From Eledone cirrhosa (taxonomy: Eukaryota): a DNA stretch of 14,449 nt. The stretch is from NCBI GenBank assembly GCA_964016885.1, contig CAXHJY010001694.1, positions 1 through 14,449 of the forward strand, given 5' to 3'. Made by a program: the position numbers and the translations under genes. Below the pieces are notes generated by a model. That model made no database searches and was not told the origin of the DNA. It saw nothing but the letters and a program-made list of their open reading frames with translations. Shown here in pieces: positions 1 to 6,045 of the stretch (its first letter is position 1; every line of letters starts with the position of its first letter).

Positions 1-535
1 CACACACTCACTCCCCCACCACACACACACACCCCCCACACACACACTACACCCCACACACACACACACCCCCTCACACACACACACCCCCACACACTCA
101 CACTCCCCACTCACTCCAACACACCCCCACACACACACACACCCCCACACACACACACTCACCCCCACACTCACACACACCCACACACACACACACACCC
201 CCACACACACCACACCCCCCACACCACACAGCACACCCCCCCCCCACACTCCACACACCCCACCACACACACACCCCCCACACACACTCCCCCCCTCACT
301 ACACACCCCCCCCCACTACACAACCCCCCCCACACACTCACACCCCCCCCCCACAAACACATCCCCCCCCACACAAACACCCCCCACCCCACAAACACAC
401 CCCCACCCCCACACACACACCCCCCCCCACACTCCACCCCACCCCACACTCACACTCACACCACTCACACACACCCCCACTCACACACTCACCCCACCCC
501 CACACTAACTCACCCCCTCCCCCACACTCACACAT
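1..535. repeat. C/A-rich low-complexity tract (degenerate (CA)n with C-runs)
   Basis: Almost entirely C and A with scattered T; only one G seen (231). The minus-strand G/V/C/W-rich ORFs are artefacts of this composition. Confidence 0.9.
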
Positions 536-968
536 ATTCTTTTCCATTTATCGTTTTCGGTACGACCGTGGACTAACTCACTCGATATGCAAATTAGGCT
601 AGCCAGCCTTAATATACATAAGGAAAGTATATACTTTCAGACGTTCAACCATGTGACAGAAAGGTATACGATGCTGACGATAGCTAATAAGCTTGAAACT
701 AGTACATCGTTCCTGTGTCCCTGTTGAACAAAAAGATGATGTTTGCCTGAACACTGTACGGCGTAATTCGGGCTCTTTGTTTGTTTACAAACAAACCGAG
801 CTTTATAATAGATGCTCGGTAAACCCATACGTACATATATATATGTGTGCGTTATGTATATATATACATACTACTGTACGTATGTACACATATATGTATG
901 TACATACTTACATTTAAGTACCAGCCGTACTAAGAGTGAGAAATGAAATTCCGTTTCATTCTTTTCCA

Positions 969-970
<2 letters not shown>
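536..970 (+). mobile_element. Module A: non-coding hammerhead-bearing element (retrozyme / Penelope-like pLTR-derived), bounded by a 13-bp direct repeat
   Basis: ATTCTTTTCCATT at 536-548 and 958-970; HHR at 668-710 within an extended stem (TTCAAC 644-649 / GTTGAA 723-728); several side hairpins; flanked by the CA tract and (TA)n. Confidence 0.6.
668..710 (+). ncRNA. Type I hammerhead ribozyme, minimal (palindromic stem III)
   Basis: Stem I ACGATG(668-673)/CATCGT(705-710); core CTGACGA 674-680; stem II AGCT-AATA-AGCT (682-693) with a U.U closing pair; GAAA 695-698; stem III A-CTAG-T (palindrome ACTAGT); predicted cleavage after GUA (A704). Confidence 0.85.

Positions 971-971
<1 letters not shown>

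Positions 972-1046
<75 letters not shown>
972..1046. repeat. (TA)n microsatellite
   Basis: Perfect TA dinucleotide run. Confidence 0.98.
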
Positions 1047-1047
<1 letters not shown>

Positions 1048-1261
1048 CAGAGATGTCAACATGAATGGTTATTTTTATCTAGAGACATGTTTTCCAATTC
1101 CAACCCGACCGTCCCCTCAATCTATTTTATTTCTCTTTTTTTCTGATAAAAGACTTGCGTCCGAAACGTTAAGAATCTCTTTCTGCTATATCAGGCGTTA
1201 ACCTAATATATACCTTCCACATACTGTACCGATTGTGTTATTTCTGTTTTCCTTTTACATA

Positions 1262-1263
<2 letters not shown>
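1047..1263 (+). mobile_element. Module H1: dispersed repeat with minimal HHR (Penelope-like pLTR-type fragment)
   Basis: 1084-1233 aligns by eye to the reverse complement of 3556-3708; contains CTGATAA...CCGAAACGTTAAGA; flanked by (TA)n on both sides. Confidence 0.75.
1139..1174 (+). ncRNA. Minimal type I hammerhead ribozyme, core variant (G8->A), probably inactive
   Basis: TTTT CTGATAA(1143-1149) A AGAC-TTGC-GTCC GAAA(1163-1166) CGTT AAGA; stem III is the loopless palindrome ACGT. Confidence 0.65.

Positions 1264-1295
<32 letters not shown>
1264..1295. repeat. (TA)n microsatellite
   Basis: Perfect TA run. Confidence 0.98.
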
Positions 1296-1301
<6 letters not shown>

Positions 1302-1327
1302 TGTAATAAACAACATAAGATCATTAT

Positions 1328-1385
1328 TTCTTTTACCAGTGGTTTCTTGAAGACAGATGTGTTTGTCTTCAGTCGTCAGAATGAA
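1328..1385 (-). ncRNA. Type I hammerhead ribozyme (left arm of module B)
   Basis: Minus strand reads TTCATT CTGACGA(1379-1373) C TGAAGACA-AACACATC-TGTCTTCA A GAAA(1346-1343) CCACTGG TA AAAGAA; 8-bp stem II, stem III ACC-ACT-GGT, predicted GUA cleavage, stem I with one mismatch. Confidence 0.75.
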
Positions 1386-1435
1386 TAAATAACATGGTGT
1401 ATTTATTAAATATGGTAAAAACCCCATGCTATTTA

Positions 1436-1496
1436 TTCACTGTGACGACTGAAGACAGACATAACAGCTGCATTCAAGAAACCACTGGTAAATGAA
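1436..1496 (+). ncRNA. Hammerhead ribozyme, degenerate mirror copy (C3->G) in right arm of module B
   Basis: TTCACT GTGACGA(1442-1448) C TGAAGACAG-ACATAACAG-CTGCATTCA A GAAA(1478-1481) CCACTGG TA AATGAA. Confidence 0.6.
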
Positions 1497-1590
1497 ATAA
1501 TTATATTATGTTGTTTATTAAATAACTAATAAACTCTGTAGCCTACATAGAGCACTCTTTTTTCCTGTACCTTTCCGACGGAAATACTAC

Positions 1591-1593
<3 letters not shown>

Positions 1594-1636
<43 letters not shown>
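1594..1636. repeat. (TA)n microsatellite
   Basis: Perfect TA run. Confidence 0.98.
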
Positions 1637-1639
<3 letters not shown>

Positions 1640-1958
1640 TGTAATATAGTGTATTTGGTAATATACTGTATGCTTAATTAAAATCAGTTCCTGATTATTA
1701 CTGGAATTCTATAAGAATCGAACATGTATAATGTTCAACAAACAAAGGGAGTGCTAAGCTCTGAGGAATACCAACAGTATGAAACAGATCTGTCAGCTTA
1801 TCTGCCTTTGTTTGTTGAAAAAATAAGTAAGTGACATCGTCACTACTTTAAAACAATAGCATATGGTCTTCAATATGCTTTTAATTAAGCATACAGTGTA
1901 TTACCAAATGCACTATATATACATTCATATATACATCGCTATTTCAGAGCACCAATTC

Positions 1959-1964
<6 letters not shown>
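1637..1964 (+). mobile_element. Module C: branched rod-like non-coding element with central HHR, 47-bp terminal stem and short 3' tail
   Basis: Outer arms 1637-1683 / 1879-1926; inner stem TTCAACAAACAAAGG / CCTTTGTTTGTTGAA; side hairpins GAACAT/ATGTTC, AGTGAC/GTCACT, AGCATAT/ATATGCT; tail with AGAGCAC 1946-1952; (TA)n both sides. Confidence 0.8.
1755..1800 (+). ncRNA. Type I hammerhead ribozyme, intact consensus
   Basis: Stem I TAAGCT(1755-1760)/AGCTTA(1795-1800); core CTGAGGA 1761-1767; stem II ATAC-CAACA-GTAT; GAAA 1781-1784; stem III palindrome ACAGATCTGT; canonical GUC cleavage predicted after C1794. Confidence 0.92.

Positions 1965-2010
<46 letters not shown>
1965..2010. repeat. (TA)n microsatellite
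   Basis: Perfect TA run. Confidence 0.98.
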
Positions 2011-2015
<5 letters not shown>

Positions 2016-2154
2016 CGTAAAAATAAGAAAATCATAAAAATTAACTTACTTGAAATTTTAGTAAGTTAATTTTTATATTTCGCTTATTTTGCGTCTTTCA
2101 TATAATTGTTCTGCATCCCCTTGCATTGAACCACAACGTTACTAAGACAAAACC
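2011..2154 (+). mobile_element. Module D: short fold-back (2011-2098) plus 3' tail, no HHR core
   Basis: Perfect 17-bp inner arms ATAAAAATTAACTTACT (2034-2050)/AGTAAGTTAATTTTTAT (2060-2076); outer arms AAAGACGTAAAAATAAG / CTTATTTTGCGTCTTT; same hairpin+tail+TA layout as modules B and C. Confidence 0.55.
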
Positions 2155-2244
2155 TATATATTTGCTTGCATAGGTATACTTCTGTATATATATGTTGGTA
2201 GATATACTAATTCTTTATATATATATGTATATTTATTTACTTAT

Positions 2245-2519
2245 CAACAACAACCATTTGTTAGTCATACCCCATGTTAAATATAAGGCGCAGATGTATT
2301 CACATGCAACAATATATTTCTTATAAACACATGTAAGATGTTGTTCCTGGTGTTAATGTGTAACTCGTTAAAGAGCATATCATCATGTGTTGATTATATA
2401 TCTTCAGTTGAGTTAAACAATGACTCATGGAGGTGGATATTACATATTTATAAGAGCGTTGACGCTAGTTCGTAGCCTTACTTAACCCTAACTGTATCAA
2501 ATGTGTATAGAGCTGTTGT
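2245..2519 (-). mobile_element. Module E: decayed long fold-back with a central broken HHR-like core
   Basis: Nested inverted matches CATTTG/CAAATG, GTTAA..TAAGG/CCTTA.TTAAC, TCTTATAAA(2319-2327)/TTTATAAGA(2447-2455), TAACTC(2361-2366)/GAGTTA(2410-2415); minus-strand CTGAAGA (2407-2401) followed by a hairpin, but GAAA is missing. Confidence 0.4.
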
Positions 2520-2542
2520 CTTTCTCTATAACAGGGGTGTGG

Positions 2543-3103
2543 AACATATTCCATTGGCGGGCCACTTTTGAACATTGGAACAAATTTTAGAGCCATTAAT
2601 ATTTATTAAGCACTATTCCAAAGATTCACCACAACTTCTTACCGTAACCTGGAGCTGGGAAATTATAACACATATAACCTTATCAGTGGTTGCGGACTGG
2701 CCAGGTTGCCCAATCGCTAGTGCGCCCCTGGGGGCCAACGGTAGCATTGCAGGGGCCTGCAGTAGCATTGCAGTGCCAGATGTAGTATTTTAGGGGCTAA
2801 TGCTTAGCTTTAAACATATTCCATTGGCGGGCCACTTTTGAACATTGGAACAAATTTTAGAGCCATTAATATTTATTAAGCACTATTCCAAAGATTCACC
2901 CCAACTTCTTACCGTAACCTGGAGCTGGGAAATTATAACACATATAACCTTAACAGTGGTGGCGGACTAGCCAGGTTGCCCAATCGCTAGTGGACCCCCA
3001 GAGCCCCACGGTGGCATTGCAGGGGCCTGCAGTGGCATTGCAGGGGCCTGCAGTAGCATTGCAGTGTCCAATGTAGTATTTTAGGGACCAATGCTTAGCT
3101 TTA
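2543..3103. repeat. Tandem duplication of a 270-bp unit inside the hAT left end, with an internal 21-bp minisatellite
   Basis: CCATTGGCGGGCCAC at 2551 and 2821 (offset 270); the second copy has one extra GTGGCATTGCAGGGGCCTGCA unit (offset becomes 291). Confidence 0.92.
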
Positions 3104-3444
3104 AAAAAATACATGATGTCTAAGAGGAAGAATAAGTTTAAAAGAAAATAAATAAGACAATTAAGCAAAGCTTTTGGTTAACCAATTCCCCAGGGAGTTA
3201 CTAGAAACCAAAATATACGATAGTGCAAATAGCTGGAATCACTGGTTGTACATTCTAATAAATCTAAAGCTTAGTGTATTCATTCATGCATACAAACATG
3301 TATAGACACAAACGCAAGCATATTTTTATATATATATATTTATTTAAATACTTACATATACAGACGAACTGTTTGGTATCAATGGGTTAAAGATATCTGC
3401 CAAATGAATTAGTGGAGAAGGTGGTGTATATATATAAATATATA

Positions 3445-3446
<2 letters not shown>

Positions 3447-3480
<34 letters not shown>

Positions 3481-3547
3481 GCGTGTGCGTGTGCGTGTGC
3501 GTGCGTGTGCGTGTGCGTGTGCGTGTGCGTGTGCGTGTGTGTGTGTG
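3447..3547. repeat. Compound (TG)n/(TGCGTG)n microsatellite
   Basis: Direct reading; alternating purine-pyrimidine. Confidence 0.95.
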
Positions 3548-3759
3548 AAAAAGGTATCGGTACAGTATATGGAAGGGATATATTATGTTAACGCTTTATA
3601 TGACAGAAAGAGCGTCTTAACGTTTCGGGCGCTAGTCCTTCACCAGAAGAAAGAATCAGAAATAAGATAGATTGAGGGGACGGGTGGGGTGGAATTGGAA
3701 AAAATGTCATATATATTGAGTGAGTGTAAAAGACCAAATGTCATCATTGAAAGTTTCTG
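3548..3759 (-). mobile_element. Module H2: second copy of the H1 HHR family, nested in the hAT element
   Basis: Reverse complement of 3556-3708 matches 1084-1233; weaker similarity out to ~3759; the 3' end abuts the (CA)n/(CACGCA)n tract on its own strand. Confidence 0.75.
3615..3650 (-). ncRNA. Minimal type I hammerhead ribozyme, core variant (A6->G)
   Basis: Minus strand TCTT CTGGTGA(3646-3640) A GGAC-TAGC-GCCC GAAAC GTT AAGA; stem I TCTT/AAGA perfect. Confidence 0.7.
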
Positions 3760-4314
3760 GATTTCGCAAAATACCTTCTCCAATAAAAAATATTATGTAA
3801 GATATTTTTCTGCAAAAACTTGATTGCACTGTTTTGTTACCACTTATAGAATGCTATCATTTAAATTTTATAATGAATAAATAACATTTTAAAAAATACA
3901 TATGTAGATGGGCCGCCTTCATCTCCTGGCAACCAATATCTTTAGACCCAGCCCGCCACTGCCTTTTAGTGAAACCCTTTAGCATAGTTCAACTAAACGA
4001 AAAGTGTATCACGGTTACGAAAAAAATTCTAAATAAGCTTACAAGGTATGAAGTAAAAATGGTCATTGCAGTTACTCTGACGGGCCTGGTTGGCCGTATC
4101 GTGGCCCGCAGGCTTCCTGTTGCACACCCCTGCTCTATAACCTATGCCCCTGGCTAAGAGTAAGGAAAGAAACGATCAGCATACCAGAACTCATTTGCTT
4201 ACTGATTTGGGTAGAACTCGTGAAATCAGAACAAAGAAACAATGTTTGCAGTGGTCTTTCAATTGTTGATAGTATCTACCTGTTGCAATATCTGGCAGAT
4301 AGCACCAAGTAAGC

Positions 4315-4405
4315 AAAATTGTTATGCTCAAGAACACAACACATCTTCCGGGTCGGAAATCGAACTCGCTATCTTACGATTGTGAATGCAATTCTCTAAC
4401 CACTA
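4315..4405 (-). mobile_element. tRNA-derived SINE (family 2), degenerate 5' part
   Basis: Minus strand has B-box-like GAGTTCGATTTCC followed by TGTGTTCTTGAGCA; homologous to 4740-4845. Confidence 0.65.
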
Positions 4406-4509
4406 ATACACAGTTATAAAGAATAAAGAGCTGAAACATATTTAAACAAATGAATCTTCTGTAGAAATGCCACAAGCCTGAATGTATTGGTAATTATAAA
4501 TTTACGTGA

Positions 4510-4720
4510 GGGCGGTGGATTGCCAGTATCGTTAGACAGTTGCACTCTGTGCTTTGCAGCATAGAGTTACGCCTCTTTATGGTCCGAGTTCAAATCCCAC
4601 CGAGGTTAACTTTGCCTTTTATTCTTACGGGGTCGATAAAATAAAGCGCCATAATGTACTGGGGTCGATTTAATCGACTCACCCCTAAAAAAATTACTGG
4701 CCTTGTGCCTATACTAGAAA
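4510..4720 (+). mobile_element. tRNA-derived SINE (family 1), near full length
   Basis: GGCGGTGGATTG head, B-box GAGTTCAAATCCC (4586-4598), body GAGGTTAACTTTGCCTTT..TCTTACGGGGTCGATAAAATAAA, tail GGCCTTGTGCC; several copies in the window. Confidence 0.85.
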
Positions 4721-4739
4721 TCGATACTATAAACTTACG

Positions 4740-4845
4740 TGAAATAAAATGTCTTGCTGAAGGACACAGCGCATCACCCGGTCCCTGAATCGAACTCGCA
4801 ACCTCACGATTGCGAATCCAATTCTCTATCCACCAAGCCACGCCT
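4740..4845 (-). mobile_element. tRNA-derived SINE (family 2), 5' part
   Basis: Minus strand A-box TGGCTTGGTGG, B-box GAGTTCGATTC, then TGTGTCCTTCAGCAAGACATTTTATTTCA (CORE/V-like central motif). Confidence 0.75.
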
Positions 4846-4955
4846 ATAAAGCGCTCACACGTACAGGGAACATATTTAGACATCTAAATATATCTGTAAA
4901 ACTACCACAAGCATGAATGCATTCGTGATGATAAACAAAGTTAATTATATATGTA

Positions 4956-5140
4956 GGGCGGTGGATTGGCAGTATCGGTATAGGGTCGGACGCCATGCTT
5001 TGATGCATAGTTATGGTCCTTGCCATCCCTTGTTCAAATCCCGCCGAGGTTAACTTTGCCTTTCATCCTTACGGTGTCGATAAAATAAAATACCAGTAAT
5101 ACACTGGTGATTGCTTGCCTTGTGCCAAAATTAGGAACAA
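4956..5140 (+). mobile_element. tRNA-derived SINE (family 1)
   Basis: Homologous to 4510-4720: GTTCAAATCCCGCCGAGGTTAACTTTGCCTTTCATCCTTACGGTGTCGATAAAATAAAATACCAG...GCCTTGTGCC. Confidence 0.85.
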
Positions 5141-5721
5141 TTATTTATTCAAAGTAATCCAACTTATTTTACTAACGGGATAAAAAAAACAAAAAAACCG
5201 TACACCGTCCCGTACTCCTTCCTTTATTATAGTTTAGATTTTTAAAATATGGCTTTTATATCATCATCATTTCTAGTGGTTATTGATATGTTCTTAAATT
5301 TATCTCTGAATTATCTACGAAATCTTAATACACTTTTTCTGATAACTTCACCAGGATAGTTACTACTTCATCATTATTTAGTGTCTATATATACAGAATC
5401 TAAATATATTCTCTTTATGTAGTCTTACAAACATATATTTATCGATAACGGAATCTTGCCTTTAATCTCATTCGTAAACCTAACACATAATATATATTTT
5501 CAAATCCGAAAATCATGCATATGTAAAGTAGATTCTTTAAGTATTAAACATATATAAATACATCTTTGAATAGAGATTGTAAGCGTCTTAAGTCTATATA
5601 TAATAAATAAGCCTGTTCTATTTTAACAAACATAATACTGTTATACGTATATTTATCTAAAGAGGGATATTGTGGTCGATATTTTGTGTGTGTGTTTATA
5701 TATGTATGGGTGTAGGCATAT

Positions 5722-5768
5722 GGGTTCAAGTCTCGCCGAGGGTAGCTTTGCATTTTATCCTTACTGTA
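5722..5768 (+). mobile_element. SINE family 1 fragment (B-box and start of body)
   Basis: GGTTCAAGTCTCGCCGAGGGTAGCTTTGCATTTTATCCTTAC resembles the B-box/body of the other copies. Confidence 0.55.
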
Positions 5769-5870
5769 GACCTGACAACCTTTAAAAACCCAACAGGTGA
5801 GTACAACGAAGAGAGTGCAACAACACTTAGAAAAATCAGGCAAAATAAAGGGATTTTAATACCTGTTTCT

Positions 5871-6045
5871 CCTTTTGGCACAAGGCCAGCAATTACTCAC
5901 TGCATTACTGGTACTTTATTTTATCGACCCCATAAGGATGAAAGGGAAAGTTAACCTCGGCGGGATTCGAATTCAGAATGGCAAGGGCCGTAACTCTATA
6001 CGTCATAGCATAGCGTCCGACCCTCTACCGATACTGCCAATCCAC
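5871..6045 (-). mobile_element. tRNA-derived SINE (family 1), reverse orientation
   Basis: Reverse complement GTGGATTGGCAGTATCGGTAGAGGGTCGGACGCTATGC...TTCGAATCCCGCCGAGGTTAACTTTCCCTTTCATCCTTATGGGGTCGATAAAATAAAGTACCAG...GGCCTTGTGCC. Confidence 0.85.

Follow-up and report, generated by a model that had tools for sequence, protein, structure and literature searches.

A hammerhead-bearing insertion on a contig of Eledone cirrhosa is very probably the work of a non-LTR retrozyme: a 5'-truncated hammerhead repeat, together with an inverted piece, placed in a (TA)n tract by way of a Penelope-like retrotransposon (PLE). The window analysed is the entire 14.4-kb contig (14,449 nucleotides), from a genome of 3.0 Gb. 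Our verdict on the repeat family is that it is a new member of the animal non-LTR retrozymes, a non-autonomous rider on PLEs, and neither a viroid nor a MITE. Literature on hammerhead retrozymes (octopus, cephalopod) and on MITEs with hammerheads, in the portions available, describes neither this family nor a hammerhead MITE; species tables, such as those belonging to PMC7229834, could list it.

The locus consists of (TA)n, an inverted 3' fragment, a 5'-truncated forward unit, a 30-nt tail, and (TA)n again:

1594..1636, no strand: left (TA)n microsatellite, which probably served as target and primer, judged from the sequence and from the outer-end statistics of the family
1637..1683, minus strand: inverted, 5'-truncated second copy of the 3' part of the unit (matches reference unit 225-288), forming the left arm of the 47-bp stem
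1682..1964, plus strand: forward copy of the 314-319-nt unit without its ~30-nt 5' linker (reference 31-314, 91% identity)
1934..1965, plus strand: PLE-type tail of ~30 nt, bounded by the two preferred 3' ends and present only at this end
1965..2010, no strand: right (TA)n microsatellite, from the sequence

This is the common type of locus in the family, with the short end at the left and the tail at the right. No frame of at least 80 aa spans it in the list of open reading frames, and a reverse transcriptase (RT) plus GIY-YIG frame is absent both from the unit and from the window. All of the long frames within 1-530 and 7217-14449 are repeat artefacts. The first of these stretches is a C/A-rich simple repeat; the second is a 7-kb degenerate TA/CA microsatellite, and microsatellite dominates the output of a repeat finder run on the window. 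With one ribozyme and no linker, the window copy could not release a unit-length RNA alone, and probably was dead on arrival.

The initial annotation took a 47-bp terminal stem to close the element, and the resulting ~330-nt rod to be the element itself. The components that it listed are all present in the sequence: the arms (1637-1683/1879-1926, 47 and 48 nt); the 15-bp stem; and the small hairpins. The closing role of the stem fails. The best other copies align to the finding only from position 1679 on, and the 24-nt junction between the left arm and the forward copy has a single match in the 3.0-Gb genome, namely itself, with up to two mismatches allowed. Therefore the closing stem is tied to this single insertion event. 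The inverted piece stops at the tail-less end, and is specific to this locus. The actual unit is a tandem monomer of 314-319 nt, of which this copy lacks the first ~30 nt.

The two arms differ by two transitions (T1652.G1910 and T1664.G1898) and a 1-nt indel. The transitions had been read as U.G wobbles on the ribozyme strand, and thus as evidence of constraint on the RNA. They are uninformative: once a transition has occurred in an inverted repeat of DNA, one of the two strands will show it as U.G. The chance that both fall on the same strand is 0.5, and 51 other near-full copies all lack G1910.

The locus, with its inverted arms and its TA flanks, could also be taken for a DNA MITE of the ordinary sort that has 47-bp terminal inverted repeats and a TA target duplication and that captured a hammerhead by chance. 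This identity was considered and is vanishingly improbable, refuted by the unique junction and by inverted termini that are not common to the copies. The left arm is found in no other copy; inverted pieces at other loci vary in length and in junction; tandems, 5' truncation, and a tail are features of retrotransposition; and the ribozyme covaries. The initial annotation had itself pointed to copies sharing only their inverted termini as the mark of a MITE. The termini are unshared, and the hammerhead is conserved instead. Its view of the element as RNA-based, and not a DNA MITE, holds up.

Ribozyme-to-ribozyme spacing is 317, 319, and 314 nt at three loci, giving the monomer length. A natural tandem unit (L002) serves as the reference on which loci were mapped, and this mapping places the linker at the 5' end of the unit. 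The unit is non-coding, with a GC content of 0.32-0.33. An exact 25-mer anchor has at least 2,230 matches in the genome, one ribozyme variant at least 202, and the short palindromic stem III at least 120; all three are lower bounds, with arms and tandem units counted separately. As predicted circles, natural monomers reach energies between -62.6 and -73.5 kcal/mol, with z between -3.2 and -5.7 and ~60% paired, and their minus strands fold to still lower energy.

Two supposed peculiarities of the window copy were tried and set aside. The short palindromic stem III is not private to it, as the 120 genome matches attest. Private changes that perfect hairpins yield six gained pairs, a number reached in 5 of 4,000 null runs; two of these changes are alleles of other subfamilies (29 other matches), and one is common in two outside sequencing runs. 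This reading is not used because the alleles are shared and because the window copy (-54.8 kcal/mol) folds no better than 51 others (mean -55.5). Rare changes at G1733 and T1874 (in 1720-1736 and 1858-1879) complete two small hairpins that are not conserved in the family, and probably reflect chance.

The ribozyme lies within the forward copy:

1755..1800, plus strand: type I hammerhead by descriptor match, predicted to cut after C1794
1755-1760/1795-1800, plus strand: stem I, TAAGCT/AGCTTA, from the hammerhead descriptor
1761-1767 and 1781-1784, plus strand: hammerhead core, CUGAGGA and GAAA, from the hammerhead descriptor
1768-1780, plus strand: stem II, ATAC/GTAT, from the hammerhead descriptor
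1784-1793, plus strand: palindromic stem III, ACAGATCTGT, with the GUC site ending at C1794

The initial annotation had recognized a hammerhead of full consensus here, correctly: this is the sole type I descriptor match when both strands of the window are scanned, with none on the minus strand, and 0 of 300 shuffles of 531-7200 give any hammerhead descriptor match. An Rfam search of 1640-1965 returned no hammerhead family at E<=10; for the whole window, its matches are dominated by microsatellite miRNA.

Folding of both strands, suggested earlier as a check, does give a stable structure, with an MFE of -115.4 kcal/mol and a z of -14.8; but z is -11.4 for the minus strand too, as any long inverted repeat would fold so. 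Stem III is not formed in the MFE fold of the locus, and the constrained active monomer fold accounts for ~6e-4 of the predicted ensemble (four contexts). With a second copy, the stem III palindrome makes a computed self-duplex of 10 bp at -13.6 kcal/mol. Across the family, most of the common stem III forms stay self-complementary although their length and sequence vary. Stem III is predicted to pair two ribozymes, resulting in dimeric activation. Such a dimer-type design is described as a feature of animal type I hammerheads in the accessible text of PMC4209133.

Covariation across genomic copies provides the evidence for constraint on the RNA. Copies were sampled through an anchor outside the ribozyme, giving 91 stretches plus the window; 22 of these 92 rows were truncated, deleted, or rearranged and were dropped, which favours intact folds, and 70 were aligned. 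The structures examined are:

1734..1819, plus strand: long stem carrying the ribozyme, which covaries across subfamilies (helices 1-3, 84-95% paired)
1830..1844, plus strand: AGTGAC/GTCACT hairpin, 93% paired (367/394 cells), with no clear compensatory change
1875-1892 and 1896-1913, plus strand: two local hairpins, each 93% paired and each with one compensatory pair

Over 32 pairs, 88.2% of cells are paired, versus 81.4% after shuffling; slid controls give 42-60%. Cells with double changes number 222, versus 89.7 in shuffles, and 0 of 500 shuffles are as high. On two weaker measures of covariation, about 50 of 500 shuffles do as well as the real alignment. Compensatory pairs are found in the long stem and in stems I and II; single pairs in the long stem covary as GC34/AU24, AU34/GC28, and GC44/AU20. 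Nothing could be learned from the RNAalifold consensus, computed on the gappy full alignment. A figure of 99% paired for ATTCT/AGAAT was discarded, being biased by the sampling anchor.

The hammerhead core itself contains a covarying pair, C3-G8 in 51 of the 70 rows, U3-A8 in 13, and other combinations in 6. The accessible text of PMC4209133 gives U3-A8 as a known natural variant in PLE hammerheads. Rows with U3-A8 form two separate groups on the tree. A single origin is rejected with the longer alignment from which the core columns were removed (p-AU 0.0004); the two-origin test on the 100-nt alignment is not significant (p-AU 0.069). Each pair shows one to three changes on the tree, hence few events, among related subfamilies. 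From these comparisons of sequence, the hammerhead fold of the family has been kept by paired changes, so that the predicted self-cutting is likely to matter to the element. The repeated rescue of the core pair argues that active masters were selected for catalysis.

The compensatory pairs of the two 3' hairpins are TA41/CG12 and AT43/GC12. Both hairpins lie within the supposed right terminal arm, whose sequence appears to be selected for local folding, not for pairing with the left arm. The rod would break up these two conserved hairpins, and this speaks against the rod as the element. The small hairpins that had been claimed fare unequally: AGTGAC/GTCACT is conserved, AGCATAT/ATATGCT partly so (72% paired), and GAACAT/ATGTTC is not (53%), the latter two figures coming from 69 other copies. 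RNA-level constraint, as judged by covariation, is real in the hammerhead, the long stem, and the two 3' hairpins, but does not extend to the terminal stem.

How the family inserts can be read from 103 independent loci, chosen for their similarity or by a pattern rather than drawn at random. Partial tandems occur in 67 of these; both orientations are present in 65, and 62 have the head-to-head layout, joined 5'-5'. On the maps, only tandem or inverted units are seen, and no body framed by an LTR pair; tail-to-next-unit joints number 65 in 160 loci. The 5' starts are scattered along the unit. Read depth climbs strongly toward the 3' end in two outside runs (contigs, unknown library, one sample). 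Outer 3' ends concentrate at two spots about 30 nt apart, at reference 265-300 (69 ends) and >=305 (77 ends), with 19 elsewhere; lenient alignment over-extends some minus-strand pieces inward, and outer ends alone were counted. Of the 146 outer ends that fall at these two spots, 123 adjoin TA or another microsatellite.

Among the 62 head-to-head loci, 47 can be classified: 38 with one long and one short end; 6 with both long; and 3 with both short. The 15 further loci have an end elsewhere and were left out of the tail count. A tail at exactly one end in 38 of 47 loci is unexpected under independence (binomial p 1e-5). The unit, its tandem and inverted layout, the asymmetry of the tail, the TA flanks, and the covariation are all seen directly.

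These features resemble those of PLEs. The accessible text of PMC8557442 describes PLE insertions with 5' truncation, partial tandems, and an inverted 5'-truncated copy, all three of which are found in the present family. It further describes a 30-40-bp tail at one end and a bias toward (TA)n targets. According to PMC11167929, in the part available, a PLE protein nicks and extends both strands of AT-rich DNA, and priming takes place from two RNA start sites, which delimit the tail. As read from the insertions, a tail on one side, copies in inverted orientation, and TA targets amount to direct footprint evidence that PLEs move retrozymes.

Long RT plus GIY-YIG frames exist in the genome. From 150 scored of 10,597 GIY-YIG candidates, 56 loci were drawn; terminal repeats with homology to the unit are present in 0 of 56, and a separate inserted pair sits in one. 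These data bear on the notion that the unit is the terminal pseudo-LTR of an autonomous PLE, and its copies heavily truncated PLE insertions. Such insertions would leave the same footprint. PLE terminal repeats bear type I hammerheads, including U3-A8 variants (PMC4209133, accessible text), and retrozymes are derived from PLE terminal repeats according to the available part of a preprint (bioRxiv 10.64898/2026.07.22.740005). Nevertheless, what lies upstream of the unit in tandem loci is the end of another unit (the 65 joints noted above); PLE protein matches occur in only three family loci (L062, L065, and L125), none of them shown joined to the unit; and the ends of the 56 GIY-YIG loci have no homology to it. 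We consider the pseudo-LTR very improbable.

One near-complete PLE (L127, G000:C1:145869500-145876500) contains a 938-aa frame matching RT plus GIY-YIG, with identical U3-A8 hammerhead-like motifs about 5 kb apart, one on each side of the frame. It offers a candidate enzyme. In a single case (L022, 960-1130), a family copy abuts a short inverted pair of PLE 3'-end pieces of the L130 type, through either co-insertion or later insertion.

For a retrozyme mobilized by a PLE, we infer cleavage, circles, and the nature of the enzyme as follows. Tandem master copies would be transcribed. By analogy with homologous systems, a pair of ribozymes would come together by way of their palindromic stems III and cleave behind GUC to yield unit-length RNA, which may be circularised, a host ligase possibly closing it (as in PMC7229834, accessible text). 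The PLE enzyme, a reverse transcriptase with a GIY-YIG endonuclease, would break a TA tract on both strands, and each end of the break would prime cDNA, the two start sites being ~30 nt apart. A short microhomology would next let the two cDNAs fuse 5'-to-5'; in the window, AA is found at 1682-1683, at the 5'-5' join of the two pieces. The presumed outcome is that the inverted arm has no tail while the forward arm carries it.

The unit might in addition replicate from RNA to RNA by a viroid-like rolling circle, so that genomic copies are snapshots captured by PLEs. Many subfamilies conserve the structure and diverge in sequence, circular monomers are predicted to fold well, and RNA-RNA steps are raised as possible in the available parts of PMC4209133 and PMC7229834. 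Yet the hammerhead exists in one polarity only, the closing stem of the proposed rod is a one-off, and successive masters, arising through error-prone reverse transcription, account for the subfamilies equally well. We regard RNA-to-RNA replication as very improbable. The same degree of doubt attaches to a broader reading: an animal ribozyme circle evolving as a viroid-like RNA, its hammerhead kept via compensatory changes, with a Penelope enzyme leaving fossils at TA breaks. Two independent switches of the core from C3-G8 to U3-A8 form part of that reading. The independent viroid-like replicon of the initial annotation finds no support, given a hammerhead on one strand only and copies that carry the footprints of retrotransposition.

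Other repeats populate the window. A second head-to-head pair, of an unrelated repeat, lies just after (TA)n at 1297-1530, with 14 alignments in other loci; each arm has a hammerhead-like core (CTGACGA ... GAAAC CACT GGTA), for which the strict descriptor makes no call. Two opposite copies of another abundant repeat (1050-1260 and 3590-3730; 11 and 9 alignments elsewhere) contain CTGA-like and GAAACGTTAAG motifs along with a short GC hairpin. A repeat with internal inverted segments occupies 540-830 (21 alignments in other loci), and a tandem duplication of ~270 bases, with internal short repeats, covers 2530-3100. By eye, 4300-5110 and 5700-6010 hold several SINE-like repeats with a common segment, GGTTAACTTTGCCTTT...CGATAAAATAAA. 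Between TA tracts at 6265-6665 are two adjoining short elements with inverted ends (CCCAAAA.TAAGGTCTCC / GGAGACCTTA.TTTTGGG), which by eye look like a true DNA MITE.

These results bear on whether the hammerhead makes a difference to mobility of the PLE type. One PLE could still insert in vitro after mutations had killed its ribozyme (PMC11167929, available part); in the present family, the core pair has been rescued twice by compensatory change. Against the retrozyme reading stands the accessible text of the 2026 preprint (bioRxiv 10.64898/2026.07.22.740005), which reports 8 of 9 Xenopus retrozyme dimers uncut in vitro. The results also bear on which enzyme moves animal retrozymes, for which the footprint points to PLEs. 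The rule of one long and one short end (38 of 47 loci) leads to a testable model of two-ended priming. The class is already known; the useful extras are the repeated covariation in the core and a PLE footprint on a retrozyme.

Likeness to MITEs consists of a short, non-coding sequence with inverted ends and TA flanks at one locus. The family differs in that inverted ends are unshared between copies, and in being directional, truncated, and tandem. With hammerhead viroids (Avsunviroidae) and with viroid-like circular RNAs, the family has in common its size, a branched fold, the hammerhead, and predicted dimeric activation. Hammerhead viroids are recognized by hammerheads in both polarities, whereas the family has the motif on the plus strand only. 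It also exists as thousands of chromosomal copies with retrotransposition footprints, and gives no sign of RNA replication or infectivity.

EN+ PLEs (Neptune, Nematis, Poseidon, and Naiad), as described in the accessible parts of PMC8557442, PMC11167929, and PMC4209133, are closer. Shared features include partial tandems, an inverted 5'-truncated copy, a one-sided tail of ~30 bp, (TA)n targets, a palindromic stem III, and the U3-A8 core variant. Unlike these elements, the family has no RT/GIY-YIG frame and no homologous autonomous element in the 56 loci, and its hammerhead departs from the minimal PLE form in having canonical stems I (6 bp) and II (4 bp).

Finally, the animal non-LTR retrozymes, as presented in the available portions of PMC7229834 and bioRxiv 10.64898/2026.07.22.740005, have a unit range of 170-400 nt, into which the present unit falls, and the same low GC (32-33%). 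Both carry a single type I hammerhead in each unit, occur as monomers and as short tandems, have a self-paired predicted circle, and co-occur with PLEs. The family departs from them in its mostly dispersed, truncated, head-to-head copies in (TA)n, with no long arrays, and in its tail at one end; the accessible text of PMC7229834 never uses the word "inverted". The preprint, in its available part, argues that animal non-LTR retrozymes represent non-autonomous PLE derivatives. A hammerhead in each unit, a non-coding monomer within ~150-450 nt, GC below 50%, a head-to-tail arrangement, and the lack of an LTR layout all characterize the present family, which, known here from DNA, fits the sequence-level definition of an animal non-LTR retrozyme.
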